From Candidatus Omnitrophota bacterium (GTDB taxonomy: Bacteria; Omnitrophota; Gorgyraeia; Zapsychrales; Zapsychraceae): 62,933 nt of DNA. The notes below the pieces were generated by a model. The model worked only from the letters and a program-made list of their open reading frames with translations, made no database searches and was not told the origin of the DNA. Below, piece by piece: positions 6,196-32,630 of this stretch. A program made the translations under genes and the position numbers. How positions within the stretch are numbered: position 1 is the stretch's first letter; the number at the start of each line of letters is the position of its first letter. The stretch covers positions 1-62,933 of the forward strand of contig JAIORP010000115.1 in assembly GCA_021108075.1 (NCBI GenBank), written 5' to 3'.

Positions 6196-6339
6196 AATCC
6201 TGCTCAATATTAGAATACGTTATTTATTCTTATTGAATGAATGGTTTCGTCGTTATTATGTGATGTTTATTGTTTTAGGAAGGAGCCACTTGCCGTGGCG
6301 CAAGTTTAATTAACAATTCGATATATGAAGGGGATGAAG

Positions 6340-8981: not shown

Positions 8982-8990
8982 ATATGTCAT

Positions 8991-11593: not shown

Positions 11594-14500
11594 ATGATAT
11601 CTAGAAATATATATATAAAAAATAAATTTCTGTTCTTCGCAGTTCTGTTTGTTTTTTCATTTTCTTTAATCTTAGTTGAAAATATTTCTTATGCCGATGA
11701 TATTCAAGCCGTACTGGATTCTGACGATGGATCGAGTGCGTTTTCTATCCAGGATTCTTCTTCAACGGAAGTCATGTCCATTGATTCGAATGGTGCGGTC
11801 ACAACTTCAGACAATATAACTGTTCAGGGCGGGGATGCCACCATTGGGGCCGGCACAACAGCCTATCCCGGACGTTTCATTCTTCATGACGGTGATGGCG
11901 GAGATAGCTTCACGACAACAATACAATCTAATGATGACGTAAATGCCAGTTATATTTTAACATTGCCGACAGACGACGGAAATCAGAACCAGTCATTGTT
12001 GACAGATGGTTCAGGGAATCTATCCTGGGGAGCGCCAACGGGTGGAAGCGGGGCTTATGATCTGAATGGTGAAACGTTAACGATCGACCTGGATGGCGAT
12101 ACATTCTTAGACGCGGCGACAGATGATCAATTGGACATCGCTGTTGGCGGGAGCGATGTTGTCCACTTGACAGGTTCTTCGCTGTATCCTGATATAGATG
12201 GTAGCTTGGATTTGGGTAGCATGACCAATGAATACAAGGATATTTATATCGATGGTACAGCGCATGTTGATTCTTTAAGCGCGGAGCTTGTTAATATTGT
12301 TAGCGGAACGATTGATAATGTGACAATTGGTGGCACGACAGCCGCAGCAGGTACATTTACGAGTTTGTCAACGACTGGCGATGCGACAGTGTCCGGTGGT
12401 GATGTCACGATGGGTGCGGGCACGATCGCGTATCCCGGCCGTTTGATGATGCATGATAATCAAGCCGGTGATTCTTTCACGGTGACGGTCCAAGCGAATG
12501 ACACTATCGCCGCAAGTTTTATTTTAACGCTTCCTGGTGACGATGGATCACAAAACCAGTCATTAATTACGGATGGTCAGGGAAATTTAAGTTGGGGTGC
12601 GCCTTCAGGAGGAACGGGTGCGTATGACCTTAATGGTGCGATTTTAACCATCGATGCTGACGCGGACACATCATTAGACGCCACAACAGATGATCAAATT
12701 GATATCACTATCGGTGGAAGCGATATTGTTCATCTGGTCCCAACGTCCATTTATCCTGAAACAGATGATAGTGTTGATTTAGGTCGTTCATCAAATGAAT
12801 TTCGAGATTTATATATTGATGGTACGGCTCACATTGATTCTTTGTCCTCTGATACCGTGACGATCGACGGCGGTTCAATGAATAATGTGACAATCGGAGG
12901 GACAACCGCAGCAGCTGGATCGTTTACGACTTTAACAGCCAGCACATCATTTGTCACGACCGGGGACGCGACCGTGTCCGGCGGGGATGTGACGGTTGGT
13001 GACGGGACAACGGCGTATCCTGCCCGTTTTGTCATGCACGACAATCAGGCGGGTGATTCGTTTACGATGACGGTACAGGCGAACGATACCATAGCCGCGA
13101 GTTTTATTTTAACGTTCCCTTCGGATGACGGTATATCCGCGCAATCTCTCATTACCGACGGTTCAGGGAATTTGAGCTGGGGCGCGCCTGCCGGAGGGAC
13201 CGGGGCGTATGACTTGAACGGGTCATTATTGACCGTGGATGCTGATGGGGATACGACAATACAGGCGGACACGGATGATCAAATCGATATTCAGGTCGCG
13301 GGCACGGATCAGTTCAGCATCACGGACGGGGCGATCACACCGACCACAGATAATGATATTGACCTGGGAAGTTTGAGCAGTGAGTATAAGGATTTGTATG
13401 TTGATGGTGTTGGATACATTGATTCCGTCTCCGCGGATACCTTGACAGCCACAAATGTGGATTTAGACGTCGGAACGATCGACAATGTAACGATTGGTGG
13501 GACAACAGCCGCGGCCGGAACGTTTACTTCAATTATAGCGAGCACGTCATTTGCCACGACCGGTGACGCGACCGTATCCGGCGGGGATGTGACGGTTGGC
13601 GACGGGACAACAGCTTATGCGGGCCGCATGGTGATGCATGACACCGACGGTGGTGACAGCTTCACGATGACGGTGCAGGCGAACGCGGACATCGGCGCTG
13701 ATTTCATTTTAACCTTACCGGCTAACGATGGAACCTCCGGACAACAATTAACGACTGATGGGGACGGGAATTTAACATGGGATGCGAATGGATCAGGAAG
13801 TTTAGATGATACGTACAATAATGGAAATACGGTTGACGTAGACGGAAGTGCGGTAATGTTGACTGTTAGTGATACAGATAACAATCAGGCTTTGAGTGTC
13901 GTTCAGAATGACGTGACCAATAATCCCGTTGCGATGAGTGTGACGAACGCAGGGACAGGTGATGCCTTGCAACTTATCAATTCTAATGCCGGCACTGTCG
14001 GGCCGACGCTTGTTATGCATCATGATTCCGCGTCACCATCTGATGGCGATGAGGTATCGAGAATTGAATTATCAGGTGATGATAGCGCGGGTGTTCGGAC
14101 TGAGTACGCCAGGATATATTCGTTGGCCAATGATGTGACAGATGGAACAGAAGATGGTGAGCTGATTTTTATGGTCGCTGATGAAGGAACCATCACAGAA
14201 GCTATGCGGATTGATGAGAGTGGTAATTTAGGACTGGGAGAAACCGTCCCTGCGGCAAAGCTTGAAATTGATACTGATGATGGTGATAATGTCGTTGGTT
14301 TAGTTATCGATCAGGATGACGTGACAAACGATATGGTCGCATTACAAATTGAGAATGCTGGTACAGGTGATGATATTTTAATTGTCAATACCGAAGCAGG
14401 TGCAACAGGTGCTGTTCTCACCCTTCAACATGATTCGGTTTCACCGGCTGATGACGACGATATTGGTATCATTGACTTTACTGCTGATGATGATGGTGGT

Positions 14501-15049
14501 ACGGCTTTTGACTTTGGCCGCATTTATGTTGAGTCGAACGATGTCTCGGATGGCACGGAAGACGCAAACATGATTTTTTCCGTAGCGAATGATGGGACTT
14601 TAGAAGAAGTCATTCGCATTGATGAAAGCGCGCAAATTGGTGTGGGGACGTCAACTCCATCCGCAAAATTAGATGTTAACGGCAGTGTAAGTTTATCGGG
14701 CACAGGCAGCGGATTTGATGCCAACAATAATACGATCTATTTCCAAAAACAAGAAGACACGGGGGCAACAGGAGCGGAGACAATTGATTGGCGCAATGGG
14801 AATAAGGTTGAACACACGTTAACCGGTAATGTGACGTATACATTCACGGATCCTTTAGATGTTTGCAATCTGTTGCTAATGTTGAAGCAAGACGGTACAG
14901 GCAGTCAAACCGTGACTTGGCCGGCTGGAGTCCAATGGCCGGGAGGAACCGCCCCGACATTATCAACCTCTGCCAATGCCATTGACATTGTCAGCTTCTA
15001 TTTTGATGGGATCAACTACTACGGTTCTGCCTCCCTTGATTTTCAATAA
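11594..15049 (+). CDS. Secreted tail-fibre-like repeat protein (1151 aa)
   Basis: Signal-peptide-like N-terminus. About 3.6 tandem units of roughly 190-200 aa (GGD[AV]T[IV]G.GT.AYPGR...SWGAP.GG.GAYDLNG...IDNVTIGGTTAAAG). Two units of about 115 aa that end in GxGxxxPxAKL[ED][IV]. Confidence 0.75.
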   Translation: MISRNIYIKNKFLFFAVLFVFSFSLILVENISYADDIQAVLDSDDGSSAFSIQDSSSTEVMSIDSNGAVTTSDNITVQGGDATIGAGTTAYPGRFILHDGDGGDSFTTTIQSNDDVNASYILTLPTDDGNQNQSLLTDGSGNLSWGAPTGGSGAYDLNGETLTIDLDGDTFLDAATDDQLDIAVGGSDVVHLTGSSLYPDIDGSLDLGSMTNEYKDIYIDGTAHVDSLSAELVNIVSGTIDNVTIGGTTAAAGTFTSLSTTGDATVSGGDVTMGAGTIAYPGRLMMHDNQAGDSFTVTVQANDTIAASFILTLPGDDGSQNQSLITDGQGNLSWGAPSGGTGAYDLNGAILTIDADADTSLDATTDDQIDITIGGSDIVHLVPTSIYPETDDSVDLGRSSNEFRDLYIDGTAHIDSLSSDTVTIDGGSMNNVTIGGTTAAAGSFTTLTASTSFVTTGDATVSGGDVTVGDGTTAYPARFVMHDNQAGDSFTMTVQANDTIAASFILTFPSDDGISAQSLITDGSGNLSWGAPAGGTGAYDLNGSLLTVDADGDTTIQADTDDQIDIQVAGTDQFSITDGAITPTTDNDIDLGSLSSEYKDLYVDGVGYIDSVSADTLTATNVDLDVGTIDNVTIGGTTAAAGTFTSIIASTSFATTGDATVSGGDVTVGDGTTAYAGRMVMHDTDGGDSFTMTVQANADIGADFILTLPANDGTSGQQLTTDGDGNLTWDANGSGSLDDTYNNGNTVDVDGSAVMLTVSDTDNNQALSVVQNDVTNNPVAMSVTNAGTGDALQLINSNAGTVGPTLVMHHDSASPSDGDEVSRIELSGDDSAGVRTEYARIYSLANDVTDGTEDGELIFMVADEGTITEAMRIDESGNLGLGETVPAAKLEIDTDDGDNVVGLVIDQDDVTNDMVALQIENAGTGDDILIVNTEAGATGAVLTLQHDSVSPADDDDIGIIDFTADDDGGTAFDFGRIYVESNDVSDGTEDANMIFSVANDGTLEEVIRIDESAQIGVGTSTPSAKLDVNGSVSLSGTGSGFDANNNTIYFQKQEDTGATGAETIDWRNGNKVEHTLTGNVTYTFTDPLDVCNLLLMLKQDGTGSQTVTWPAGVQWPGGTAPTLSTSANAIDIVSFYFDGINYYGSASLDFQ
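11828..13800 (+). repeat. In-frame tandem DNA repeats (units start about 11828, 12395, 12980 and 13580; period 567-600 nt)
   Basis: ggcggggatgtgacggttgg[t/c]gacgggacaac recurs at 12980 and 13580, with diverged copies at 11828 and 12395. Confidence 0.8.
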
Positions 15050-15106
15050 AAAATTAAATTAGAATTAGTACCGTCTTCTAATTGGTAAAAAAGTAGGTGG
15101 TACCTA

Positions 15107-15135
15107 TTGACAATTTAGAGGCCGCTTATTATAAT
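15107..15135 (+). promoter_or_regulatory. Consensus sigma-70 promoter (TTGACA-17-TATAAT) of the Y1 transposase gene
   Basis: ttgaca at 15107-15112, a 17-nt spacer, and tataat at 15130-15135. The ATG at 15142 lies 6 nt after the -10 box. Confidence 0.7.
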
Positions 15136-15141
15136 TGAAAC

Positions 15142-15780
15142 ATGCCAAGGCCCTTGCGATTACAAGACGCCGGTTATATCCATCACGTTATCTGTCGGGG
15201 GAATGACCGAAAAACCATTTTTAAGTCACAGAATGATTTTAAGACCTATCTTGGTCTGATAAATGAAGCCCGCCGTCTCTACCCGATATATCTTTATAAT
15301 TATGTGTTAATGGACAAGCATACTCACCTCCTCCTGGAGCCCAAACAGGATGGGAGTCTGTCTAAATTTATGGAATATATCTCGAAAGGATACGCGAAAT
15401 ATTTTAATAAGAAGTATGATCATGTTGGGCATGTCTTTCAGGGACGGTTTAAAAGTTTTATTGTCCAGAAAGAAAAATATTTTTTCGCCTGCACGCGCTA
15501 TATCGATATGAATCCTGTTAGGGCGAGGCTGGTCAATGATCCAAGCGAATATAACTGGTCTTGTTACAATGTCTTAAGTAAAGGTAAGCGTGCCGAAATT
15601 CAAATTGACCGGCATGATATTTACAAGGAACTCGGCCGCAATAACACCGAACGGCAAATTGCATACAGGGCCTTGATCATCAGTTCTCAAGGCGATGAGT
15701 TGGATTTATTGAATAAAAGAGCTGGGATTCTAGGTGATGCGGACTTTAAGTCGAGGATCAAAAGAAAGACAAAACGATAA
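15142..15780 (+). CDS. IS200/IS605-family Y1 (HUH) transposase of the REP-associated tyrosine transposase (RAYT) type
   Basis: MPRPLRL..GYIHHVICRGNDRKTIF, HUH motif HTHLLLEP, and catalytic-Tyr helix TRYIDMNPVRARLV. Confidence 0.85.
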   Translation: MPRPLRLQDAGYIHHVICRGNDRKTIFKSQNDFKTYLGLINEARRLYPIYLYNYVLMDKHTHLLLEPKQDGSLSKFMEYISKGYAKYFNKKYDHVGHVFQGRFKSFIVQKEKYFFACTRYIDMNPVRARLVNDPSEYNWSCYNVLSKGKRAEIQIDRHDIYKELGRNNTERQIAYRALIISSQGDELDLLNKRAGILGDADFKSRIKRKTKR

Positions 15781-15798
15781 TTTCAAGGTGGCACCTCC

Positions 15799-18700
15799 AT
15801 GCTTTATAAGCACACGGTACTTAATATAATAAAAGAACATGGTTCTAAAGTCATAGAAAAACATCAGGTGCATTTCTGGAAAGGATTGTCGTTTTTTTTC
15901 TTAAGCTTGGTCCTGATCTGGACTGTTGTTGTCCCTGTTCAAGCCCAGGGGATTTATATCCCGAGTGGTTCGGAAATGAATGTCGCGACAGGTCAACTCA
16001 GTGTTTCCGGTTATGTTGATATTGGGGGCACATTGAGTGTCGATACCGGAAGCGTTTCAACTTCAGGGAATTGGAGCAATTCAGGTGTTTTCACCCCTGG
16101 AACAGGTACTGTGTATTTTAATGGGACATCAGCGGCAACCCAGGTTTTGAACTCGGGTGGCATGGGCACCAATTATAATTTTTACAATATCGCCCATGAC
16201 GGAGCCAGTACTGTCCAGTTAAGCACTCATGCGTTGGATATTAATAATAATTTGTTGAATTCGTGCGGGAGCATCAACGCAAACGGCCAAAACATTACTG
16301 TTGCGGGATCCTGGACGAACGCAGCGACGTTTACGCATGGGAGTGCAACGGTCACATTTGATGGCACAGATCAAAATATCACTGGCGACACAATATTTTA
16401 TAACTTAATGAAAACGACTGCCGCATCTAATACAATGACGTTTACGAATGCCGATGAGCAAATCATCGAAGGGACGTTAACGCTATCAGGCGCGTCAGGG
16501 CAGCTATTGAATCTACGCAGTGACTCAACCAATGATCAATGGTATATCAATTTACGGCCAGGTGGTGCGCAAGCTCTCCAATACTTAGATGTTCAGGACT
16601 CGAACGCCTTTGGTATTACGGGTGGAGGAGATGGCGTGACTCTCGTTGCCGGTGGGACGTCAAACAATCAGGGAAACAATAACAATTGGGTCTTTGGCGG
16701 CGCCACATTGACGTGGCAGGGTGATGTGTCTGCGAACTGGAATATCCCTGGCAATTGGGATTTAGGTTTTGTCCCGGGGGCGGCAGATACGGCGTTTATT
16801 CCGACAGCACCTTTAGGCGGGATTCTTCCGACATTATCAGCCAGTGTTGATGTGACGGATTTAACATTGCAAACAGACGCAGCCGTTTTTTTAGCCGGCT
16901 ATGATCTGCAGGTGACAAACGCGGTCCAGACCGAGGGTACAGTTTATCTGTTTGGAAACGAAACGTTGACCATCGCGTCCATGAATAATGATTCGGGAAT
17001 ATTTAATTTTACCGGAGACAGCGATGGTATAAGTGAAATATTCGTGCTCTCCAGTTTAACGTACTACGATGTTGTCATCAATGATCCAGATGCGACAAAC
17101 GATACGTTCCTGTCTGCAACAGATATCAGCATCGCAGGGAACCTGACGATTACGGCGAGTGAATTTGATATATCAACCAATACGAATACTTTGACGGTCG
17201 CTGGAACTATTTCCGTTGATGACGCGATCCTGCGGGCCGATAATGGTCATGTTGACGCCAACGGCGATGTTGAACTGATCCATGCGAACAGTGAATTGCG
17301 TGCGCCAGGTAACGGACAAAGTTTCACGGTCTCCGGGGATTTTTCACATACAAATGGTACATTCACGCACAACAATGGCGTCGTGACGTTTAACGGGTCC
17401 AACCAATCAATTAATGGCAGTACGACTTTTTATGACTTCAATAAAACAGTCGCGTCGGCTGATACGCTGACCTTTGACCGTGCAGCAACTCAAACCATTA
17501 CGAATAGTCTCGTCCTGCAAGGAGCTTTGGGAAATATTCTTGATATTGAAAGCGATTTAGCAACCCAACAGTTTGCGATAACATTGCAGGCGGGGGCAAC
17601 GCAGACGTTGAGCTATCTGGAAGTCCGTGATTCAGCTGGAAGCGGGGGGATCGGCCTTGTTGCAAGGAATGCAAGTGAACCTAACGGTAATAATGATAAC
17701 TGGTTCTTCTCGGGCGCGAGTATAACCTGGGAAGGTGACGATGTCACGACACCAACAGATTGGGAAACAGCTGCTAATTGGGATTTAGGGATTGTTCCAA
17801 CGACGGATGATACAGCTGTTATTGCTGATGTTTCCGAGGAGCCTCTTTTGACCGCCGCAGCATCCGTCGACAATTTGACCTTGCTATCCGCGGCGACAGT
17901 CACCTTGAGCGGCTATGACATGACAGTCGCCAATATGTTGTCGAATGAGGGGACGATTTATGCCCGAGGGGACGAGACCGTCAATATCAATACAATGGAT
18001 ACAGACTCGGGTGACTATGTTTATACGGGGGATGGCGATGGCGCGGCGGACACGTTCATCATTGCCAATACCGGGACTTCTCCGTCAATGTATTACAATC
18101 TGCAGGTACACGACACGAATGCGACATCAGACACCTTTAGGACGGTACTGGATCTAACCGTTAATCATAATCTTAATGTTACCGACGGTGAGTTAGATAT
18201 CAGCGGGAATGGCAGCACGTTAACTCAGAGCGGTACGTTAACAATCAACGGAGGTGTTTTCCGTACGACAAATGGAACTGTCGATATAAACGGTAGTGTT
18301 GTCCTCAGTAGCGGAATATTTTTCGCGCCGGCCACCGGGCAGACATTCACCATTTCAGCTGACTTTATAAATAGCGGGGGAACGTTTACGCATAATTCTG
18401 GTTTGGTCGTGTTTGATACGACGAACACGTCAACGGTTACCGGGAACACTACTTTTTATGATTTTCAGGCTGCCGTAGGCGGAAAGTCGATGATTTTTGG
18501 GGGGATATCGAATCAAACCGTTGAGAACACACTGACAATGTCTGGGGCGAGCGGTAATCTTATGACAATCCAGTCAACGAACACCGGTGTTGATCAGTGG
18601 GAACTCACAGCTACAAATAGTACTCAATCGACCCAGTTTTTAGATTTAGCCGATGGTGCGGCTTCTGGTAATGATGTGTATTGTTTCAGCTGCACCAATT

Positions 18701-21700
18701 CAGGGAACAATGACGATCTTGCGGCTTCACCGCATTGGATCTTCATGACATTGTCGATCACGAACCCTGAGAGCGGAAAGACGGTTGACACAACCCCGAC
18801 GATTATCGGTGTCGGTCCGACCTCACAAACAATAACGTTCAGGGATATTGCCAACAATTTGATAGCGACGACTGATACGGATGTGAACGGCAACTACCGT
18901 GTTGAAGTGGATCCGTCAGACGCCCTGACAACAGGGGCTAATTCAATTACTCCTTATATCGGGGCCTTATCCGGAGGTGCTGTTCCCCTGGCCATTGCGG
19001 ATCCAACCACACCTGCACAAGTCCCTATCATCACGTCACATATTGATCAGCAACGTGTGAGCGGGGCAACGGTCACGGTCGCCGGGCAGGGTGCGAGTGG
19101 TGATACCGTTACGGTTATGGCCAATGATGCTGACGGGAATATGCTGCTGCAGACAGTTGGTTCCGGTTCGACCGACGGGGCAGGGGATTTTTCCTTTGCC
19201 TTGACGACGGATTTATTAAAAGGGGAAAATTATCTTTCTGTTACCGTTGATGGAGTTGCCAGTGGTATCGTTCCTGTCTTGTTGACCGATCCATTCGGTG
19301 TTGTGTTTGATTCTTCTTCGGACGGCCCTGTGAACAGTTCTATTGTCAGTTTGTACCGCGCATCAGATAATCAATTGGCCAATGCCGCAGATGGTGATAT
19401 CCATGCGACGGATACCAATCCGTATACAACAGCTGCTGATGGTTTTTATAGTTTCTTAACCGCTAATGGTGATTATTATCTTGAGGTTAATGTCGCAGGA
19501 TATGATTATCCTTCAACGGAGGTATCCTTCCCTGCGGGCAGAACAATCGTCACGGGCTCAAAGGGTGAGACATTTACCGTAAGCAGTGTCGTTATTGAAA
19601 TGGATCATCCCGCCGATCCAAACGCGCAAATTTTGCGTATTGCCAAGGATGCAAACAAAGGGGAGGTGACAGTCGGAGAAGTTGTGACCTATACCATGAC
19701 AATCGAGAACATTTCAAGCAATAACATCAGTAATGTTTATCTAAAAGATATTATTCCACCGGGTTTTAAATATCTTGAAGATCGCGTAATGTTGGACGGG
19801 GTGCCTATCTCTAATCCGTCGGGAAATCGACCGTTATTATTTTTTGTTGATTCGTGTCCGTCAGGGGTAACCAGGGTCTTAAAGTATCAGCTGATCGTTG
19901 GTGCGGGTGTTATCCCCGGAAATTATGATAATTCCGCTATTGCCCAGTTTAGTAATGGTAAGCTTTTATCGAATCGAACAACAGAAACGGTCAGAGTGGT
20001 CTTGGATCCGTTGTTTGATCTGGGTATGGTTATCGGTAAGGTATTTTTTGATAAGAATGATAATGGCATACAAGATGCTCCGCAGCATTATTGGGAAGGA
20101 AATGATGAGAAGATTGTCCTTGAAGAACCCATTCCTAACGTTCAGATTGTGATGGAGGATGGAACGGTTATTAAGACGGATGCAGAGGGCCGGTTTAGCG
20201 TTCAAAGCATTATTCCCGGACGGCATTTGTTTAGGATTGACGAACGCTCCTTACCGGAAGGCAGTTATTTAACGACAGAAAAAGTTGTTGTGATAGACGT
20301 TAAAGAGGGCATGATGCATAAAGTCAATTTCGGTGTTAATTTATACGGAGATCAGGTTTTCAGTGAAGACCGGAGTTTTTTTACGCAAAATGTTAAGGTT
20401 GCACTGGAAAGAAATAAACCGCATCCGCGTTTGAATGTTCGTATGTTTGAGGAAGAAGTTGGCGTCCTTAATAATGTCTTTATTCATCAAGTCGAGTTCA
20501 GGGTCTTTTGTAATTATATTTCTTTCATTAATACCTGGACATTAGAGATCCTCGATTGGGATACGCATCGTTTGATCAAAAGTTTTAGTGGGAATCATTT
20601 TACGTTGCATGATCCCATCTTCTGGGATGGCTTAGATCTAACAGGCGAACACATTCGTATTGATCGTCGATATGGCTATAGGGTAATAGTTAGTGATAAA
20701 CGGGGCAAAAAAGATGTGACAAAGATCATACCGTTGAATATTAAGAAATTAAAAACAGATGCTGAAAGGCAAGCTCATTTGCTGGCTCAGGAAAAGGCAC
20801 GGGAAGACTATATGAAATGGTTGGAAAAAGAAAATAAACAAAATCAACTTAAAGAACAGCATATTTTGATAGAAGGTGAGACGCTTACGATAGAACGATT
20901 GGTCAAGGGATTGCAGAATATTTCCATTTACAAAGGCGGCAGCCTGGTTGCTGAGTTGCCGATATTGGAGAAACGTGGTATCAGCGCCAGTGATTTATTA
21001 GACGGTGAAATTGTTAAGGATGCAGGAAAAACCATACCGCTTGAAGTTATCCTGCCTTATGGGGACTATGATATTATCGCTCAATCGACGGAAGCCAGCC
21101 CTTCCAGCCCGCCGCAACGATTTGAGCCAATAACGGGAAGTGTTTCCGGGGGTGTTTTTGTCGATGATCGAATAAAACCATCAGACAAGGTGATGAGGTC
21201 TTACCGTAAAGCGATCAAAGTCGGTGAAGATTATATGTTTTTTGTTGCTTTAGGTGATGCCTTGGCCGGGTACTCTTTCATGAAGGGAAAACTGGATGTG
21301 GTTGAACATGATGATAAATATAATGATGGTTTTTGGGTCGACGGTAAGATGGCGTATTTTTTGCAGGGTAAGATTAAAGGGAAATATTTGATCACATCGA
21401 GTTTTGATACCGACCGTGACCGCAAAGCCCTTTTCAAGAAGATCGAAAAAGATAAATATTATCCCGTCTATGGTGATTCTTCTACGGTCGACTATCAAGC
21501 GACAAATACACAAGGCCCGTTATATCTTTTAGTTGAGTGGGATAAATCATCTGTTTTATGGGGCAATTATAGTATCGGCTTTGATGAAACGGAGTTCGCT
21601 CAATTTTCTCGTACTTTGTATGGTGGGAAAGTGGACTTTGAATCCTTGAGCTCCACCGAATATGGAGAATCCCGAACGAAAGCGGTTGTCTTCAGAGCTC

Positions 21701-24714: not shown

Positions 24715-24823
24715 CCCTTACTTAAGATAATAATAGTATTAATTATATTTAGTTAATTAATTTATCGAGGGATTGTTTCTCATTGAGAAATTGACCTTTC
24801 TACAATAGGCTGTCTCCTTTTCT

Positions 24824-27800
24824 ATGATATTGAAAAAAAAATATTATATTTTATTATTTCTCATCACGCTGTTTATCACGCCCATCGTTTCTGCCCAGGA
24901 GCTTGGTAAGGCTCAAGTCCCACAACCGTTTAAAGAGCAAAAATTGGAAGAGGGGTTTATTCTTGATTTAAAATCGTTGATAGAAAAGTCCAAAAAGAAA
25001 ATTGAAAAAGTTGATGAAAAAATCAAGGAACAGGCTGTTTATCGGCGGAATTTGCAAAGGGAAGAAAAAGCGCGGGGGCTCTACCAACAAGCGCTGCGTC
25101 TTTTTGAGGAAGAGAAATATGACAAAGCCGGAGAAATTTGGGAAAAAGCCATCGTGATTACGGGACATCCTGAGATGAAGGATTATATGCGTACAAGCGT
25201 TAAACGCACGAAGAAAAAAATAAAAGCGATGAAGAAGGCGGAAGAAGTTCGGATTCAACAACTGGAAGAGGACAGAGGCTATACGTTCAAACAAGTTGAG
25301 AAAGAATATCAAACCGCAATAAGTCTGTATAAAAAAGGTCAGTACTTAGAATCCCGGAAACGTTTTGAGCAAGTTGAAAAAATGTTCTTGGACCACAAAG
25401 GAACGCGCAGCTATTTAAAGTTGATTGATATGCACATTCAAGAAGAGCAAAAAAGACTTATCGCTCAGAAATTAAAAGAAAAGGCGACAGAGCGAAAAAA
25501 GAAAAAAGCCGAATGGCGGACAACAATTGCGAATCAGGAAAAAGAAAAGTCGATAGAGAAAAAAGAAAAAGCAGCGAATTTATACACTGAAGCGATCAAA
25601 CTGTATAAGATTCAGCAATATGGTTCCGCTAAAGAAAAATTCAAGGAAATTGAATGGCTTTTGCCGAATTACCGCTCCACCCGTAAGTACCTGATTAAAG
25701 TTAAGAAGGCGATTAGGAAAGAAGAAGAAAGAAAGAAAAATCATAAAGAACGGATCATCGATGAACGATTAGAAGAAGTTGTGAATTTGCGTTTTGAAGA
25801 ACAGCAAAAAATAAGGTCTTCTGCCCGGAAAAAGTTGGATAAAGAGAAAAGATTGAAAGAAGAAGCGGATTTCATATATAAAGCCGCCCTGAATTTGTAT
25901 AACCAGAAAGATTACATCGGCGCGCATAATAAATTCAAGGAAGTTCATGAGATTTATCCCTTTTATAAAAAGACAAATAAGTATATTAAAAAACTAGCAA
26001 AAAAAATTGTCGCTATTCAAAGGAAGAAGGTTGATCAAGAGAAGGCTGATCAGGAAGAACCGAAGAAAATGGAATCCATGGACGTTCGGGGTGAGAACAC
26101 AGAGTTAACACCCATGCAAATGCAGGCCTTGTCTTTAGCGTATGATTCAGCTGTTTCCTTATACGAGAGCAAACACTATGAGATGGCATCTGCGCGATTT
26201 GAGGATATTCGGGGGATTAATCCCTCCTATAAAAAGACAGCTTTATATCTAGAGAAGATCGATAAAATTTTGAATAAAAAAAAGGTAATAAAGCCCAGAT
26301 CTAAGAAAGACCTCGTTCGACAGAAGAAGAAGGAACTGAATCCGGTCTACCAGGAGGGGATTAAATTATTTGAACAGAGGCAATATTTGGCCTCGAAATC
26401 GCTCTTTGAACAGGTTCAAAAAACGATACCGAACTATAAGCAAACGAAGAAGTATTTGCATGATATCAAACAGGCTCAATATGATGATGTTGAGGGATTC
26501 CTGAATCAGACGGGTTTATCGACATTGCCTTATAACGATAAGATTGTTTATGAGATACGGGAACGGCGAAAACAATTGGTCGAGCAATCGGAAGTAAAAT
26601 ACAAAACGGCTTTAGCTCTATATCACACCAACAAATATCAGCAGTCCAAACAGAAATTTATTGAATTAGAAGCTTTTTATCCCGGGTATAAAGATGTTTT
26701 AATGCATCTTGCCAAGATCGATGATGAAATAGCAAGGGCTGTTGTGCCGCCGGATAGAAAATTAGAAAAGATCCGGATTGATAATACCCAATGGGAGCCG
26801 GAAGTCTTTCAGCGTAAAATTCAGGTGGAACAGATTGTGAACGATGGATCCAATAGGGTCGAAAATATTTATTCAGAGGCGAGGGCTCTTTATAAACGAA
26901 AGCAATATGAAGAAGCTTTCAGCAAATTTTTAGAGGTGAACCAATTGCAACAGGGGTATAAATCGGTTAAGCCGTACATGAAAAAAACTGAGCGGATGAT
27001 AGAAAGGTTACAGCTTAAAAAAGATCGCCAACAGGCCAAAGAACAAGCGCGTTTAGTAAAACTTAAAAAATTTGAAGCAAAGAAGCCTGGGAGTCATGCT
27101 GCGGCTGAAAAAAAGAGACTGGCGGATATTAAGGCCCAGGAAGAAGAGGCTTTGAAATTAGCGCAAGAAGAAGAACAATTAGCGCGTGATAAAATTAAAG
27201 AAGCTTTGCGTTTAGAAAAAATAAAGAAGAAAAAGTTAGCTCAAAAGGAACGGCAAAATACAATCGCGCAGAAAAAACAAGAAAAAGAACAGCGTCGGAT
27301 GGAAGCTTTGAAGAAAAAAGAGTTGAAAAAGAATAAGAAGTCTCAGAATTTAGCAAAGCGTCTGGCAGAGAAAGAAAGTCGGCGTTTAGAGAAATTAAGG
27401 GAGAAAGAGGAAAAAGAAAAAAAAGCTGCGCAACTAGCATTGCAGAAAGAATTGTCGGAGAAGAATAGATTGCAGGATGAATTGAAACGGCAAGCTGAAA
27501 AGGAACAGGCACAAAGTCAAAAAGAAAGAGATCAACTTCGTTTAAAGCGTTTAAAGGAAAAACAAGATAATCTCAAAGCCAAACAGGAAGCGAAAGCTCG
27601 AAGAAAATTGGAGAAAGAGCAAAAGCGTGAAGAAAAAAGGGCCCAAAAACAATTTAAAGCAGATCAAAAGGAAAAGAACAGATATGGAACCGTCTATAAC
27701 TCGCAAGAGGACGAACAACAGCTGAGCAAACGCGCGCGTAAAGTGCAGACGGGTATCAAAAAGGACCAAGGTCAAGTCGATCGTCATAAGCAAAAAGTTG

Positions 27801-29221
27801 TTTCAAAACAGCAAAAGCAAATCTATAAACTGCTTGAATTAGAGAGAAAGACAGAAAAGATTGATTGGAAAAAACAAACACATGCGCTGTATAAAGAAGC
27901 GCTGAAGTTGTATAAAGAAGGCAATTATGTCGCGGCAAAGATGAAGTTTTTGTCAGTGGAAGGTATGCATCCCGGTTATAAAAGGGCGCAGTCCTACTTG
28001 GATAAAGTTGATGAAAAGATTGCATTGCAACGAACGCATTATTACTCGGGATATGACAAGAATAAAAAGGATTATGAATTTAACCAAAAGATGCTTGTCA
28101 AACGGATGGAGGGCGATGCTGCGGTCAATTCCAAAGAGGAAAAAGACCGATATGAATCCTGGTTGAATAAAGAAAAGCACTTGAACCAGTTAGAAATAGA
28201 TGAAGAAACACGGTTTGAAGAACGGCGGAAGGAAGAACAATTAGCAGAAAAGAAGGTGTCACGAGAAGAAAAAAGGTTAAAGAAAATCAAGGACCGCAGT
28301 GAGAGATACCGTAAGGCCAAAGAAGCCGGAAGGATCAAAGAAAAAATTAATCTTATCTACACCGAGGCCTTTGCCCTTTACAATGACGAAAAGTATGACT
28401 TAGCGGAAGACCAGTTCTTTCAGATGGACCGCTTGCTGACCAGGGATGTCTTTGGTCAGGCTTATGTGAAAAAGATGCAAAAGAAAATTCAGCATAAGAA
28501 AGAAGAATCAAAAAAACGAATTGAAAGACGCAAACAGAAAAGGATGGAAGCCTTACGGAGGAAAGAGGAGAAAGAGTTGTTGGCCTTTAGGGAAATAGAG
28601 CAGGAACGTTTAGATAAACTGAAAGAGTTGGAACAAAAAATTAAGGAAGATGAGGTCCGTTTAAAGAAGGAAAGAGAATCGTTTAAACTGGAATTGTCCA
28701 GGAAAAAGATTGAGACACAACAAGACCTCCTTGCAGAGTTTATTGATAATCAATATTCCGCCGAAGAGCGTGTTTTGAAACAAAAAATTGAGCATAAGAA
28801 GAAAGCCCTGGACCAGCGCTATCAGGAAATCAATACACGGATGAAAGTCGTTGATTCTGGAGGGGAAGTGGTTAGAAAGAATCGCCGTCAGAGCCAAGCT
28901 CAAGCTAAACGGAGTAACCGGGAATTTGAATCAAAGGTTAGATCATTTTATCAGAAAGCGGTCAAGGAATACAAGATCGGGTCATACCTGAAGGCCCGGA
29001 AGATGTTTCTGGACATACAAAAATTGTATCCTGGCTATAAAGGAACAGGTAAATATTTACATAAAATTGAACGATTAATAGATAATAAAAATAAAAAGAC
29101 GGTCAGTCAGCGAAAGAAATATTTTCAAATATATAATCAGGGTGATACCTCTCGGCAACCAAAGACCTCACGAGAACATTCAATATCAGCAGCATTAGAT
29201 GTTATCGAGCACAAGATGTAA
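24824..29221 (+). CDS. Secreted K/E-rich coiled-coil protein with 11 TPR-like modules (1465 aa)
   Basis: Signal peptide MILKKKYYILLFLITLFITPIVSAQE. An 11-fold recurring motif Y..A..LY....Y..A...F..V....P.Y....YL..I is separated by K/E/R-rich stretches. Confidence 0.75.
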   Translation: MILKKKYYILLFLITLFITPIVSAQELGKAQVPQPFKEQKLEEGFILDLKSLIEKSKKKIEKVDEKIKEQAVYRRNLQREEKARGLYQQALRLFEEEKYDKAGEIWEKAIVITGHPEMKDYMRTSVKRTKKKIKAMKKAEEVRIQQLEEDRGYTFKQVEKEYQTAISLYKKGQYLESRKRFEQVEKMFLDHKGTRSYLKLIDMHIQEEQKRLIAQKLKEKATERKKKKAEWRTTIANQEKEKSIEKKEKAANLYTEAIKLYKIQQYGSAKEKFKEIEWLLPNYRSTRKYLIKVKKAIRKEEERKKNHKERIIDERLEEVVNLRFEEQQKIRSSARKKLDKEKRLKEEADFIYKAALNLYNQKDYIGAHNKFKEVHEIYPFYKKTNKYIKKLAKKIVAIQRKKVDQEKADQEEPKKMESMDVRGENTELTPMQMQALSLAYDSAVSLYESKHYEMASARFEDIRGINPSYKKTALYLEKIDKILNKKKVIKPRSKKDLVRQKKKELNPVYQEGIKLFEQRQYLASKSLFEQVQKTIPNYKQTKKYLHDIKQAQYDDVEGFLNQTGLSTLPYNDKIVYEIRERRKQLVEQSEVKYKTALALYHTNKYQQSKQKFIELEAFYPGYKDVLMHLAKIDDEIARAVVPPDRKLEKIRIDNTQWEPEVFQRKIQVEQIVNDGSNRVENIYSEARALYKRKQYEEAFSKFLEVNQLQQGYKSVKPYMKKTERMIERLQLKKDRQQAKEQARLVKLKKFEAKKPGSHAAAEKKRLADIKAQEEEALKLAQEEEQLARDKIKEALRLEKIKKKKLAQKERQNTIAQKKQEKEQRRMEALKKKELKKNKKSQNLAKRLAEKESRRLEKLREKEEKEKKAAQLALQKELSEKNRLQDELKRQAEKEQAQSQKERDQLRLKRLKEKQDNLKAKQEAKARRKLEKEQKREEKRAQKQFKADQKEKNRYGTVYNSQEDEQQLSKRARKVQTGIKKDQGQVDRHKQKVVSKQQKQIYKLLELERKTEKIDWKKQTHALYKEALKLYKEGNYVAAKMKFLSVEGMHPGYKRAQSYLDKVDEKIALQRTHYYSGYDKNKKDYEFNQKMLVKRMEGDAAVNSKEEKDRYESWLNKEKHLNQLEIDEETRFEERRKEEQLAEKKVSREEKRLKKIKDRSERYRKAKEAGRIKEKINLIYTEAFALYNDEKYDLAEDQFFQMDRLLTRDVFGQAYVKKMQKKIQHKKEESKKRIERRKQKRMEALRRKEEKELLAFREIEQERLDKLKELEQKIKEDEVRLKKERESFKLELSRKKIETQQDLLAEFIDNQYSAEERVLKQKIEHKKKALDQRYQEINTRMKVVDSGGEVVRKNRRQSQAQAKRSNREFESKVRSFYQKAVKEYKIGSYLKARKMFLDIQKLYPGYKGTGKYLHKIERLIDNKNKKTVSQRKKYFQIYNQGDTSRQPKTSREHSISAALDVIEHKM

Positions 29222-29278
29222 CCCTATCGGTTCTAATTTCCTCAACACATAATTAACTTTATACAAAAAAGAGAACTT

Positions 29279-31201
29279 ATGAAGTTTTTGAAAAAATTAT
29301 TTATTGTGCTCTTTGTCCTGCTTGTTGTCATCGTCTCGGCTTTTTTTATTGCTGTGAGAGCGATCGATATCAATAAGGTTGCTAAGAAAATAGCCAATGA
29401 TTTAAGTTTGTCATTGGACTTAAATATCTCTGTTAAAGATGTGAGCGCGGAGTTTTCACCGACGAAGGGAGTCATTTTAAGATTAAAGGAAATAACGGTA
29501 GAAGACAATGTCCATGAAGGGATGTCCGTAAGTCCGTTTTTAAAAGTCAAAGCTTTGTTAGTGGATGTCAATATCAAAGAACTGATCAAAGAAAAAAAGT
29601 TGATTGTTGAACAGGTTGTTTTACAGTCAGCAGAATTTATCATGATCACGGATAAAGACGGTCACACGAACATTCCTTTTGAGAAATTTTCACGAATGTC
29701 CCAGGCCGATGACTCTGAAGATCAAGAGCGACAAACCGTGATATTGAAAGGCGGTGAGAATCAGACATCGCAGCCGGAGGGGGCATCACCACCAGAAGAA
29801 GATGAACGGATGAATATCATGCCCTTTAAAATTAAATCTGTAGTCTTAAAAGAAGCCTCAATACTCATCCATGATGAATCGTCGGAAGTTTTTAAGACAG
29901 GCTGGTATTTACCTGTCCAACAGCTAGACTTTGACCTCAACCAGTTTTCTCTCGATGATCAATTTTCATTTTCTATTAATGCGAGTATCTGGAGTGAGGA
30001 CACGAATGTCAGGGTTAAAGGCCGCGCATTGCTTGATCAAAATAAAAAGCAGATGCGCATTGATGATATGGTGTTAGAGTCTGATCTGAAATTACTATAC
30101 TTTGAGAAATTGTATTCCAGCTTCCCCATCGAAGATAAGGTTCTCATTGAGCGGGACTTGCAGGGTGAATTGAATATCACCATCCATCAAATGTTGCTCA
30201 GCGATGAAGGCATCCTTGTTTTTTTATCTGAAGCCGGGCTAAAAAAGGTTAAAACAATATTGAAAAAATTAAACATTCCGGCCAGTATTGATCTTAATGT
30301 CGAAATAACAGAGTCTGATATCAATGTGGCCAATTATAAATTCGACCTGGCTTCCGGTTCCATTTACGGGCGTGGGCGCATCAATGAGTATTTAGAAGAT
30401 CGCCAAGCGTTTGTTAATTTAACGGTGGAGAATATTTCTATCCTTGAATTATTGGAGAATATGTCCATGCCACTTACGATTGAAGGCCGTATTTTTGGTG
30501 CTTTAGACGCACAGGCTCTGCTCAATGACCTGTCATCAGATCAGGCCTCTCTTAAAGGGAATGGACAGTTCACGGTGAAAGACGGCCGGATTGTGGATGT
30601 CAATTTGTTTAAGGATATGATTGATCTGGTTTCTCAAATACCTGGCATATCGATCAAGGAGCAGCTTGATCGGCATATGCCCAGTGAATACAAAAAGAAA
30701 TTGCAGCAGAAGGATACGATCGTTAAGAATATTCAGGTGGAGATCCGATTAGAGAAGAGCAAAGTTATTTTTACGGATTTTATATTTGATGCCGAAGGTT
30801 TTATTATACGGGCTAAAGGCTCCATGGATTGGTCCCGGCATTTGGAGTTTCAAGGTGATTTCTATTTTCCTAAAGATTTATCGGATCTGATGGTTCGTAG
30901 CGCGTCTGAATTCAATCATTTCCTGGATGATAAGGGTTATGTGAGATTTCCATTGCAACCATATTCTGGCCCGGCGGCCTCGTTCAAACCAACACTTGAT
31001 CTGAAGAAGATCGCTGACATTGTGGTCAAGATCGGTAAGACATACATAAAAAAAATTATCACGGACGCGTTGGACTTTGAGGAAAATGAAATCAAATCAT
31101 CTGATGATCCAGCCGCTAACCTGGATCAAGGGCCGGAATCCTTATCTCCCGAGAAGGAATTTTTAAAGACTTTGATAGATACGGTCATTGATAAATTGTA
31201 G
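29279..31201 (+). CDS. AsmA-family protein
   Basis: N-terminal anchor MKFLKKLFIVLFVLLVVIVSAFF followed by the DLxxxL...V pattern of AsmA N-termini. C-terminal GNGQFTVKDGRIVDVNLFKDMIDLV resembles the AsmA_2 region. Confidence 0.6.
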   Translation: MKFLKKLFIVLFVLLVVIVSAFFIAVRAIDINKVAKKIANDLSLSLDLNISVKDVSAEFSPTKGVILRLKEITVEDNVHEGMSVSPFLKVKALLVDVNIKELIKEKKLIVEQVVLQSAEFIMITDKDGHTNIPFEKFSRMSQADDSEDQERQTVILKGGENQTSQPEGASPPEEDERMNIMPFKIKSVVLKEASILIHDESSEVFKTGWYLPVQQLDFDLNQFSLDDQFSFSINASIWSEDTNVRVKGRALLDQNKKQMRIDDMVLESDLKLLYFEKLYSSFPIEDKVLIERDLQGELNITIHQMLLSDEGILVFLSEAGLKKVKTILKKLNIPASIDLNVEITESDINVANYKFDLASGSIYGRGRINEYLEDRQAFVNLTVENISILELLENMSMPLTIEGRIFGALDAQALLNDLSSDQASLKGNGQFTVKDGRIVDVNLFKDMIDLVSQIPGISIKEQLDRHMPSEYKKKLQQKDTIVKNIQVEIRLEKSKVIFTDFIFDAEGFIIRAKGSMDWSRHLEFQGDFYFPKDLSDLMVRSASEFNHFLDDKGYVRFPLQPYSGPAASFKPTLDLKKIADIVVKIGKTYIKKIITDALDFEENEIKSSDDPAANLDQGPESLSPEKEFLKTLIDTVIDKL

Positions 31202-31433
31202 GACGATGTTAGGTGCCCGGGTAAGTTCTTAAAGAAAGCATATTGAGGGCATGACAGGTGTTCCTTGAAACATGCTGATAAAAGAAGTTGTAAAAGCATT
31301 AAAATCAACAGGTTAAGTATGTCCTGCCAATCAAAAAATATTATGAAAAATCTTGAGTTTGGGTTTTATTCAGGATATACTAAAATCATCACGTCGGCAT
31401 AATCGTTCTGCTTATGCCTAAATAGGAGATTGC

Positions 31434-32630
31434 ATGGCAATATTTTTTAATGATACACGCAGAAGCATTAGAATTAAAGAGAATAAAAAAATAGACTGGC
31501 AACTTAAAGACAGCGCGTCGAAAGGGTCTGGACGTATCCGCAATATCAGCAAGACCGGAATGCTCCTCGAAACAAAATCTCTGAAAGAACCGGATGGAGA
31601 CTTTGTTATTTTTAATCCTTCCCATAAAACCGATTACATTCCTGAAAAAGGCCGTTTAATGTGGCGGAAGAAAAAAAATTATTCCCGGAATCGCTGGTTA
31701 TATGGCGTACAGTTTGACAATCCGTCGACAACGAAAGTCGCCGGTCTTCAAGAAAGAATTCAAAAAGGACTTATTTCCCAGGAAACTATTTTTAAGACAG
31801 AGAAAATTGTTAATGCTTTAGTGATTCCGGCCGTAGCGGCTTTATTAGGGTATGTTTTATTCATGAGCATTGAAGTCTATCGAAACATTCGGACGTCAAA
31901 TCAACGCATGCTGGATTCTTTTGCGGAGCATTCTTATCTGACGAGGAATTACTCATTGATGTATAAAGACCTTCAAACCAGGTATTATGATCTTTCGTCT
32001 GAAATGTCCGGGGTTAAAGACGAGCTGGTTACAACGAAAGATTTGTATCAGGAAAGTGAAATCATCTTAATGAACGTCAATAAAGATTTAACCTCAACAA
32101 AAAGCATTTTAACAAAGACGGAATTGATGCTCTTACAAGCAAAGACCAATAACGCCAAATTGTCTGGAGATTTAAATGGCCTTAAAAAAATTAATGATGA
32201 ACGGCTCACGGAAATGACACGGATCAAGAACGAGTTAGGGACTTCGATTGTTGCTCTACAAGAAAAAAATGTCCGCTTGAATAATGAAATGGAACGTATT
32301 CAAGACAGATTGTCTTACTACGACGGTAACGTTAAAAATATGGAAGAGAGCGAAGCTTTGTTGACCATGTATCACGGCAAGATGAAGTTGGTGAAGTTAA
32401 AAATTAAGCAATTTAAACAAGAAGCCCGGCTGGTTCATATCGCTGCACGAAAAGAAAGTGACCGGATGCGCCTGCTCATCGGCAACAATGGATATCTTGT
32501 TCGAGACGGAAAAACTGTTGTTGTTGATTCCGAGAAATATAACAATTTGATCTTCGGACAACCGCAACAAACGGCCGCAACATCGACAGATGATAAAAGT
32601 GTGAAGATAAACGTTAATTTCGTTGAATAA
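31434..32630 (+). CDS. PilZ domain protein with TM helix and coiled-coil C-terminus
   Basis: RRSIRI (RxxxR) and NISKTG (D/NxSxxG) motifs, a TM helix near ALVIPAVAALLGYVLFMSI, and heptad-like sequence after it. Confidence 0.6.
   Translation: MAIFFNDTRRSIRIKENKKIDWQLKDSASKGSGRIRNISKTGMLLETKSLKEPDGDFVIFNPSHKTDYIPEKGRLMWRKKKNYSRNRWLYGVQFDNPSTTKVAGLQERIQKGLISQETIFKTEKIVNALVIPAVAALLGYVLFMSIEVYRNIRTSNQRMLDSFAEHSYLTRNYSLMYKDLQTRYYDLSSEMSGVKDELVTTKDLYQESEIILMNVNKDLTSTKSILTKTELMLLQAKTNNAKLSGDLNGLKKINDERLTEMTRIKNELGTSIVALQEKNVRLNNEMERIQDRLSYYDGNVKNMEESEALLTMYHGKMKLVKLKIKQFKQEARLVHIAARKESDRMRLLIGNNGYLVRDGKTVVVDSEKYNNLIFGQPQQTAATSTDDKSVKINVNFVE

Follow-up and report, generated by a model that had tools for sequence, protein, structure and literature searches.

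The 63-kb stretch of DNA analysed here (the window) is a chromosomal metagenome contig whose nearest relatives, according to homologue searches, are Omnitrophota. Flanked by housekeeping genes, it harbours a string of six genes (Table 1) that encode a secreted mosaic fibre protein (gene 1), a homologue of RAYT/IS200-like Y1 (HUH) transposases, a giant protein that joins adhesin-type domains to a predicted outer-membrane barrel, a lysine/glutamate-rich (K/E) protein with tetratricopeptide repeat (TPR)-like modules, an AsmA-like protein and a protein composed of a PilZ domain, a transmembrane helix and a coiled coil. The genes form a string that is conserved in one group of Omnitrophota and is centred on the giant surface protein. 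An earlier note, made from the letters of this DNA, had described five of the six open reading frames (ORFs), and their positions, sizes and domains are borne out by the ORF list and by Pfam; its count was incomplete in that the RAYT-like ORF between the first and second of its genes had been overlooked. The gene 1 product, the giant, the K/E protein and the AsmA-like protein each possess one N-terminal hydrophobic segment, and calls of export (“secreted”) throughout this text were made by inspecting hydrophobicity and cleavage motifs by eye.

Table 1. Features of the locus and of related loci. Positions refer to the window unless they follow the number of a comparison locus (L).
Feature	Position (nt)	Strand	Size or residues	Basis
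Gene 1, secreted mosaic fibre protein	11594..15049	+	1151 aa	ORF list
Two MAT-like beta-prism units of gene 1	14153-14701	+	aa 854-1036	PDB 8oml/8on4 alignment
Phage tail-fibre-type tip of gene 1	14801-15031	+	aa 1070-1146	PHROG 9017
Putative sigma-70 promoter, TTGACA-17 nt-TATAAT	15107..15135	+		Consensus match 7 nt upstream of RAYT-like ORF
RAYT/IS200-like Y1 (HUH) transposase homologue	15142..15780	+	212 aa	ORF list, Pfam Y1_Tnp
Giant adhesin/barrel protein	15799..24714	+	2971 aa	ORF list
DUF11/CLIPPER domain of giant	19633-19944	+	aa 1279-1382	Pfam (3.8e-9), NCBIfam DUF11
Predicted outer-membrane beta-barrel domain of giant	21232..24324	+	aa ~1812-2842	AF2 model, Foldseek
TPR-like helical tail of giant	24325..24711	+	aa 2843-2971 (~130 aa)	Four long helices in AF2 model
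K/E-rich TPR protein	24824..29221	+	1465 aa	ORF list
AsmA-like protein	29279..31201	+	640 aa	ORF list, Pfam AsmA
PilZ/transmembrane/coiled-coil protein	31434..32630	+	398 aa	ORF list, Pfam PilZ
Dispersed repeat copies	1-55 (-), 3556-3644, 6087-6198, 38749-38858 (-), 44476-44586, 57777-57897, 62869-62933
RAYT-like orthologues	L006 5592-6269; L012 505-1137; L014 3341-4027; L016 1168-1797; L007 3426-4436; L026 from 5738
DsbH-type ORFs	L009 14203-16458; L011 14102-16339 (Pfam-confirmed); L012-L016, L019, L026		~700-770 aa in L012-L016, L019, L026
Split-form loci	L053 1-12664; L085 2872-9405; L041, L055, L066, L073, L074, L080, L084-L091

The giant protein and its C-terminal barrel

The giant begins with a long signal-like N-terminus (hydrophobic segment at aa 26-54) and continues through repeat-rich passenger modules (aa ~50-985, in which one segment is repeated 1023 nt, or 341 aa, downstream), Ig-like domains, the DUF11/CLIPPER domain, an SdrD_B-like region with a linker, the barrel and finally the tail. 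The Ig-like domains and the SdrD_B-like region were assigned via homologues, which carry CarboxypepD_reg, Big_6/Big, CLIPPER and SdrD_B domains. Between relatives the passenger is 33-48% identical, versus 43-58% for the barrel. The DUF11/CLIPPER domain and the surface repeats agree with the adhesin-like N-terminal region described in the earlier note; its beta-rich C-terminal region is likewise confirmed as beta-rich, but had not been recognised as a probable outer-membrane barrel belonging to a huge family that crosses phyla.

The AlphaFold2 (AF2) model of aa 1790-2971 of the window giant (pLDDT 71.8, pTM 0.63) has about 50 strands followed by four long helices, and that of a 1,045-aa homologue, P0101 (pLDDT 80.8, pTM 0.77), has approximately 38-46 long strands, these counts having been read from DSSP strings alone. 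Both models consist of long beta-hairpins nearly throughout, and the final strand of the barrel ends in a sequence resembling a beta-signal (GAFVRLTGKF). Foldseek searches of the PDB with the two models returned solely large outer-membrane barrels (MtrB, SlpA, LptD, FimD, SprA and TonB-dependent receptors) with probability 1.0 and TM-scores of at most 0.32 (~0.2 for SlpA, at most 0.19 for SprA). These are generic outer-membrane-barrel matches, and a specific kinship of the barrel to SprA, LptD, FimD, MtrB or SlpA was rejected. By sequence, the barrel region had no relatives in Pfam or NCBIfam when the giant and four separately encoded barrel proteins were scanned, and none in the PDB when the giant alone or a 45-sequence profile was used; those PDB searches matched only an SdrD B domain, an OmpA-like domain and, weakly, a TPR for the tail. 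We conclude from the models that the C-terminal region is most probably an outer-membrane barrel, one of a large family for which no curated model exists. SprA, cited as the largest barrel known, has 36 strands, a number that the predicted barrel of the giant seems to surpass.

When the barrel alone (aa 1800-2840) served as query in an exhaustive HMMER scan, the family came to 2,865 clusters at 50% identity (E <= 1e-3), or 912 at E <= 1e-30. The barrel is C-terminal in all matches listed, in proteins of 498-7,612 aa of which the shortest are probably fragments. A longer query (aa 1701-2971) retrieved more than 634 homologues, mostly of 1,000-2,200 aa; the named ones are mostly Omnitrophota, with others labelled Scalindua/Planctomycetes, Thermodesulfovibrionia, Chlamydiae, Deferribacteres, Sedimenticola and Bermanella, and their source names go no further than “DUF11 domain-containing”, “SdrD B-like” or “outer membrane beta-barrel protein”. 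In a scan of one genome per species, relatives of the barrel occurred in at least 483 genomes across phyla, and the motifs KYLITSS.D, YYPVYGD, TGGSLYYLK, STDGGLSF and a terminal G.F.R.TG were confirmed. The searchable literature yielded no description of this family, and a 2026 preprint on giant proteins of Omnitrophota mentions neither PilZ, AsmA nor DUF11 and reports no genuine barrels.

The barrel occurs in several architectures. Class A, comprising the window and 20 related loci, has fused giants of 2,300-4,231 aa that end in a TPR-like tail of ~130 aa, and its hosts are Omnitrophota or metagenome-assembled genomes wrongly labelled “Planctomycetales”; 18 of these loci reach far enough downstream to enter the co-occurrence count given below. 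Tail-less fused giants, which may exceed 4,200 aa, are found in other Omnitrophota, Brocadiia and Gammaproteobacteria, and class B proteins stop 1-14 aa past the last barrel strand, the one bearing G.F.R.TG. In the split forms of Gammaproteobacteria and Campylobacterota (Stenotrophomonas, Lysobacter, Kangiella, Leucothrix, Microbulbifer, Sulfurospirillum) a barrel protein of ~1,200-1,300 aa is encoded by a separate gene, and in at least 16 loci an upstream gene for a Calx-beta/cadherin/Big adhesin abuts or overlaps it; where coverage suffices this adhesin is longer than 2,900 aa, and it ends in an OmpA peptidoglycan-binding domain. Because the barrel is fused to giant adhesins or encoded beside them across these architectures, it is consistently tied to them. 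The split form is possibly a two-gene adhesin-display system in culturable bacteria, and we found no description of the adhesin/barrel pair in the literature.

These domain architectures also bear on whether adhesion is the purpose of the giant at all. It might instead be a structural envelope protein, a tether like SlpA/OmpM or the base of an S-layer, with the K/E protein as a periplasmic spacer, and in favour of this Deinococcus SlpA/SDBC (30 strands) is among the top Foldseek matches, the adhesins of the split forms have OmpA peptidoglycan-binding domains and the family is present in many Omnitrophota genomes. The low SlpA TM-score speaks against it, as do the N-terminal regions, which are hypervariable repeats of adhesin type, and the lack of any SLH or OmpA domain in the six locus proteins when scanned against Pfam and NCBIfam, so that we regard a structural role of this kind as quite improbable.

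The tail, the K/E-rich TPR protein and the genes downstream

The helical tail of the giant resembles TPR_2 below the cut-off (4.9e-5, 23.6 bits) and is restricted to the Omnitrophota subfamily that possesses the K/E gene. The K/E protein itself (18% K, 12% E) contains 11 modules of the pattern Y..A..LY...Y..A...F......Y, seven found by regular expression and four read from the translation, and TPR_2 matches four stretches within aa 1-729 (1.8e-8, 34.3 bits against a cut-off of 27). The eleven TPR-like modules of the earlier note are thereby borne out; they are isolated single units set between highly charged helical spacers rather than a canonical tandem array. The protein is presumed to be periplasmic, and no peptidoglycan-binding domain was detected in it. 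Its 38 homologues (806-2277 aa) all have a faint TPR_2 signal, those with a name are from Omnitrophota, and some are labelled “BamD” or “TolA-binding protein” by their sources.

In every K/E-anchored locus that we examined the giant gene lies directly upstream. Among the 68 loci in which the sequence extends at least 1.5 kb downstream of the barrel gene, 18 combine an extension of at least 90 aa behind the barrel with an adjacent K/E gene and 47 have neither; an extension without a K/E gene occurs in three (tail-like in L003, unrelated extensions in L029 and L070), and a K/E gene without an extension in none. The pairing of the giant with the K/E-TPR protein has strong support. The earlier note had taken a likeness between the tail and the K/E modules as a hint that the two proteins interact: the co-occurrence now supports that hint, while the sequence likeness from which it came is weak.

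The two genes that follow conform to their first description as an AsmA-family protein and a membrane-anchored PilZ coiled-coil protein, on the evidence of Pfam and of their hydrophobic segments. The AsmA-like protein matches Pfam AsmA (PF05170; 1.1e-19, 71.2 bits against 29.8) and has its sole hydrophobic segment, an N-terminal membrane anchor, at aa 1-35, in front of one long domain. Because its score against the NCBIfam equivalog for Escherichia coli AsmA is far under the cut-off (18 bits against 412), we treat it as a member of the family and not as an AsmA orthologue. In the last protein, PilZ (PF07238) occupies aa 8-106 (nt 31455-31751; 7.7e-7, 29.8 bits against 22.5), with both of its motifs intact in the translation (RRSIR at aa 9-13 for RxxxR, NISKTG at aa 37-42 for (D/N)xSxxG), and is followed by a transmembrane helix at aa ~124-149 (nt 31803-31880) and ~250 aa of coiled coil. 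The coiled coil is presumably periplasmic, a topology that would fit inside-out signalling.

Orthologues of the AsmA-like protein are present in 15 of the 18 tail-bearing loci and those of the PilZ/coiled-coil protein, at times split into two genes, in 11 of the 18. Iterative searches within 10 kb of the tail-less homologues (~60 loci) found neither protein beside any of them. The sequences are divergent (18-25% identity for AsmA, 21-38% for PilZ), yet their position is kept while the upstream neighbours, which may be DNA polymerase III alpha, TPR proteins, fibres or the RAYT-like gene, and some of the neighbours after PilZ vary. In L018 and L023 the genes behind PilZ seem to be different (no YgjP-like match; ORFs of ~150 and ~170 aa) and the four-gene string is retained. 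Co-occurrence in relatives, which the earlier note had set as a test, is therefore found for four of its five genes within one Omnitrophota clade, with the gene 1 fibre as an optional member.

Many class A loci have a further gene between the K/E-TPR and AsmA-like genes, absent from the window, for a DsbH-type thioredoxin of ~700-770 aa that may handle disulfides in the giant or the fibre. Beyond the locus, window positions 35210-38509 encode a 1,099-aa protein that matches GH149 beta-1,3-glucan phosphorylase only in part (130 bits, the cut-off being 1150), is highly conserved at 58-65% identity and is syntenic in L006 and L009-L011, beside a polysaccharide deacetylase (34364-35152). Synthase-dependent exopolysaccharide secretion of the BcsC/PgaA/AlgE type was considered for the locus and rejected: there is no glycosyltransferase, the TPR and barrel regions reside on separate proteins, and the deacetylase lends no support because it is part of the housekeeping synteny.

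Genes upstream of the giant

The gene 1 product has a hydrophobic signal-like segment at its N-terminus (aa 8-34) and four internal repeats of 567-600 nt each, or ~190-200 aa, found by DNA-repeat search at 11804-13765. Its only solved relatives in a PDB search are 8oml and 8on4, the tip region of the Bdellovibrio fibre Bd1334, a mosaic adhesive trimer (MAT); the beta-prism units of gene 1 match 8oml (Bd1334 818-1151) with E = 1.3e-5 (phmmer). The last ~80 aa match the PHROG tail-fibre families 9017 (3.6e-13) and 7760. Homologues are mosaic, many of them ending in Peptidase_S74 and some being called “tail fiber domain-containing protein”; the window protein lacks an S74 domain and is of the non-S74 type. 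The tip match and the DNA repeats show that the earlier note was right to call gene 1 a tail-fibre-like repeat protein; judged from its sequence, “MAT-like surface fibre” describes it more precisely.

The Bd1334 fibre is displayed on the surface of the Bdellovibrio predator, where it serves prey handling, and MAT fibres have a ~130-aa domain, beta-rich and conserved, right behind the signal peptide, according to the available text of the report describing them, which leaves their surface anchor unidentified and names no barrel partner (PMC10769870). In sequence, gene 1 is like the MAT fibres in its signal-like N-terminus, in its repeated beta-prism units that align with Bd1334, in its swappable tip and in its mosaic homology, and the hosts are alike in habit, Omnitrophota and Bdellovibrio both being thought to attack other cells. 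It differs in that its tip is of the phage tail-fibre type and corresponds to none of the six solved MAT tips.

A phage origin would account for the tail-fibre likeness differently, with gene 1 and perhaps its neighbours as a prophage remnant. The C-terminal 80 aa with their PHROG matches and the homologues with Peptidase_S74 point in that direction. We find it scarcely credible, given that the window ORFs scanned against Pfam include no other phage gene, that gene 1 has a signal-like segment and a bacterial surface fibre as its best solved relative, and that in several genomes the chromosomal position of orthologous fibres is unchanged.

The window and seven other loci (L003, L007, L009, L013, L015, L016, L024) have fibre-like genes upstream of the barrel gene, with tips or domains that vary: PTL_trimer and DUF2793 in L009, an S74 domain in L024 and an H-type lectin tip in L003. 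In this last locus (8124-16255 of CP070684.1, a 1.27-Mb Omnitrophota genome) the fibre is followed by a 2,084-aa giant that has no K/E, AsmA or PilZ neighbour. The recurrent neighbourhood of fibre and giant barrel is a lead to the anchor of MAT fibres. A rival reading is that the barrel serves mainly as a translocon, a new two-partner-like pore that would export or thread the protein encoded upstream, which would be the MAT-like fibre here and the OmpA-anchored adhesins in Gammaproteobacteria, and would do more than anchor its own passenger. The adhesin genes that abut or overlap the barrel gene in at least 16 split-form loci would agree with such a role, as would the large secreted proteins encoded upstream elsewhere (an 1852-aa PQQ propeller protein in L004, fibres in 8 loci), the lumen, which the models suggest is no narrower than that of 36-strand SprA, and the still unidentified surface anchor of the Bdellovibrio fibres in the available text of their description (PMC10769870). 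On the other hand, many tail-bearing loci have an unrelated gene upstream (DNA polymerase III alpha, TPR or RAYT), the barrel protein always has its own Ig-like N-terminal domains, and there is no sign of an energy source or a plug. We consider a translocon as the main function unlikely, and note that it is compatible with display of the giant's own passenger.

Some homologues of the K/E-TPR protein carry the source label “TolA-binding protein” (CpoB/YbgF-like), and CpoB in Bdellovibrio marks the vesicle that brings MAT fibres into prey (PMC10769870). A CpoB-like TPR/coiled-coil protein encoded in one locus with a MAT-like fibre may parallel Bdellovibrio, and we mention it only as a lead; no match to a CpoB model was obtained for the K/E protein of the window.

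The RAYT-like ORF matches Pfam Y1_Tnp (5.1e-13, 49.7 bits against a cut-off of 23) and, under the 80-bit cut-off, NCBIfam REP_Tyr_transpos (71.8 bits), and its HUH and catalytic tyrosine motifs are intact (HTHLLL for HxHLL, RYIDMNP for RYIxxNP). It stops 18 nt short of the giant gene, and the putative promoter in front of it is the sole 12/12 match to the sigma-70 consensus across the 20 kb scanned. Orthologues occupy the same position before the giant in L006, L012, L014, L016 and L026 (55-62% identity) and in L007 (40%), and in the window and these six other loci the two genes are separated by 0-20 nt or overlap; in L026 the ORF caller reads the RAYT-like gene in frame with the giant. At 55-62% identity the RAYT-like protein is better conserved than the N-terminal region of the giant. 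Its constant position suggests an enzyme that has been domesticated and is co-transcribed with the adhesin gene; regulation or DNA rearrangement are possible roles for it. No palindromic repeats flank the gene. A repeat of ~55-110 nt, which contains an internal palindrome and the core ATACCAATTCCATTAAATAATGACCAAAACCAATTCTG.TTTTC, is dispersed over intergenic sites of the 63 kb in at least seven copies, none of which flanks the RAYT-like gene; the repeat looks like a REP/REPIN element or a miniature inverted-repeat transposable element (MITE), and could be a substrate of the RAYT-like protein.

Directly upstream of gene 1, positions 9824-11335 encode a Memo-AMMECR1 fusion protein, and just before it the region 8604-9575 encodes a stand-alone response regulator and a weakly CheX-like protein. 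Farther away, the gene for ribosomal protein S2 (48010-48999) has a C-terminal extension made of eight 18-nt tandem repeats (48726-48923) that encode a hexapeptide repeat rich in G, S, E and V.

A proposed attachment module and its place among known systems

The reading that we prefer, with a probability of roughly 55% for the whole mechanism, is that the locus is a clade-specific surface-adhesin module of Omnitrophota with a “giant-barrel” autotransporter-like protein at its centre. From the observed domains, family membership, synteny and tail/K/E co-occurrence we infer its topology, contacts, regulation and biological role as follows. Sec would export the giant and the barrel would insert into the outer membrane, with the N-terminal ~1,750 aa displayed on the surface, probably having passed along the very wide lumen of the barrel itself. 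The tail would remain in the periplasm and dock onto the TPR modules of the K/E protein, whose charged helices could form a long periplasmic scaffold. The AsmA-like protein, anchored in the inner membrane, may aid assembly of the oversized barrel or lipid supply in a TamB-like manner, while the PilZ protein would sense cytoplasmic cyclic di-GMP (c-di-GMP) and relay the signal to the periplasm through its coiled coil. The gene 1 fibre would be a companion adhesin that is often but not always present, displayed together with the barrel or through it and plausibly used for contact with prey or host. TamB/AsmA-like proteins function in autotransporter assembly, and LapD/LapG put a giant adhesin under c-di-GMP control. 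The adhesin AtaA offers a precedent for the proposed docking, its barrel binding the periplasmic protein TpgA encoded by the adjacent gene (PMC12523085), and for Omnitrophota a life as predators or parasites with large adhesins has been proposed (PMC10066038). Of the dedicated envelope-spanning surface apparatus envisaged in the earlier note, the giant with its TPR partner has strong support and the AsmA-like and PilZ proteins are plausible accessories; how they would work together is suggested by their architecture.

Several observations weigh against this reading. With regard to a single operon, a gap of 232 nt precedes the PilZ gene, and a consensus scan, which we regard as uninformative, found no terminators between the genes and no enrichment of promoters. 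The AsmA-like gene is absent from L006 and L009, both of which are fully covered, and many barrel loci have DNA polymerase III alpha or a TPR protein upstream in place of a fibre. The synteny runs past PilZ to YgjP, a PF1765-like protein, YqeY, the deacetylase and the 1,099-aa GH149-like protein (L006, L009-L012), and because it is confined to one clade and continues into housekeeping genes, vertical inheritance alone could explain it. The association of tail and K/E gene gives a Fisher p of 1e-13 in a test that ignores kinship, all positives belonging to one clade, and L003 has a tail-like extension (35% identity) with no adjacent K/E gene, although the gene for its partner may lie at another site of the genome. 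The tail scored 11.4 bits with a hidden Markov model of the 11 modules, the best of 1,000 shuffles reaching 10.6, and homology of tail and modules from sequence was rejected on this marginal score, both being merely TPR-like. Finally, residues 557-805 of the AF2 model of the window giant have pLDDT below 50, and the closure of the barrel, its exact number of strands and the side occupied by the passenger rest on models.

Part of this evidence also favours a narrower explanation, in which only the giant and the K/E-TPR protein are coupled and the fibre, RAYT-like, AsmA-like and PilZ genes are neighbours held in place by slow rearrangement, the roles of AsmA in lipid homeostasis and of PilZ as a c-di-GMP effector being general ones. 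The extended synteny, the two loci without AsmA, the variable fibre and the 232-nt gap all fit it. So does the orientation of the genes: the locus is co-directional, as the earlier note had it, with all of its genes on the + strand, but their shared strand is uninformative because almost every ORF of the 63-kb window is on that strand. What tells against mere adjacency is that none of the ~60 tail-less loci has the AsmA-like or PilZ/coiled-coil gene, that the two genes hold their position at 18-38% identity and that the string is kept in L018 and L023, and we judge this explanation possible, if rather improbable.

Going beyond the surface-adhesin module of one clade, we put forward very tentatively that the barrel represents a previously unrecognised class of display or secretion device for giant adhesins and MAT-type fibres, which has ~40-50 predicted strands and occurs from Omnitrophota to Stenotrophomonas both fused and as two genes. 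In the Omnitrophota clade this device would have been elaborated into an envelope-spanning, c-di-GMP-gated attachment machine by the addition of a barrel tail, a periplasmic TPR ruler, an AsmA-like bridge and a PilZ/coiled-coil sensor. If this were true, the class would supply the missing surface anchor of MAT fibres. More generally, members of the unmodelled family, whose culturable hosts include Stenotrophomonas, Lysobacter, Kangiella and Leucothrix, would be among the largest outer-membrane barrels formed by a single chain; the family's constant linkage to adhesins suggests a general, unstudied export route for very large adhesins in diderm bacteria, one that the culturable split-form hosts make directly testable, and the AsmA-like gene nearby prompts one to ask how barrels of such size are put together. 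For the Omnitrophota, uncultured nanobacteria that are presumed predators or parasites, the locus is a candidate attachment module that would combine a Bdellovibrio-type fibre, a possible anchor and c-di-GMP input.

Among known systems, the type V autotransporters come closest. Like type Va proteins, the giant combines a Sec signal, a repetitive N-terminal adhesin passenger and a C-terminal, here predicted, outer-membrane barrel in a single polypeptide; as in the relationship between types Va and Vb, the family has both fused forms and split forms with an adhesin gene and a barrel gene; and an AsmA-like (TamB-type) gene is close by. The differences are considerable, since the barrel region spans ~900-1,000 aa with ~40-50 predicted strands, compared with 12 strands in type Va and 16 in type Vb, and the giant has no match to Pfam Autotransporter (PF03797), ShlB, POTRA or Bac_surface_Ag. 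The split forms depart from two-partner secretion in that their adhesin ends in a periplasmic OmpA domain, and the Omnitrophota clade departs from type V systems in the TPR-like tail added behind the beta-signal. Large outer-membrane barrels have 36 strands in SprA (type IX secretion system), 30 in SlpA, 26 in LptD and MtrB and 24 in FimD. The predicted barrel of the giant shares the general architecture of SprA and FimD, which pass folded or long substrates, and of MtrB, which sheathes a partner protein, but differs from the large barrels in its low TM-scores and in having no sequence kinship with them. The giant does not have the defining features of SprA, of type Va or Vb proteins or of SlpA/OmpM, and identity with each was rejected.

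The remaining parallels concern the partners of the giant. AtaA-TpgA offers an adhesin membrane domain with a periplasmic partner encoded by the adjacent gene, an arrangement that is proposed by analogy for the tail and the K/E protein; TpgA, however, is small, BamE-like and OmpA-like, whereas the K/E partners are TPR/charged-helix proteins of 1,300-2,300 aa. The LapA/LapD/LapG system and Alg44 resemble the locus in architecture only, a giant adhesin lying beside an inner-membrane c-di-GMP sensor with periplasmic output, and differ in that the putative sensor here consists of PilZ plus a coiled coil and is neither a degenerate GGDEF-EAL/HAMP protein like LapD nor membrane-fusion-protein-like as in Alg44; no LapG-like protease, type I secretion system or glycosyltransferase is encoded in the locus. 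By analogy with these systems, the locus would function like an autotransporter adhesin that has acquired a dedicated periplasmic partner, together with a TamB-like factor and a Lap-type c-di-GMP input.

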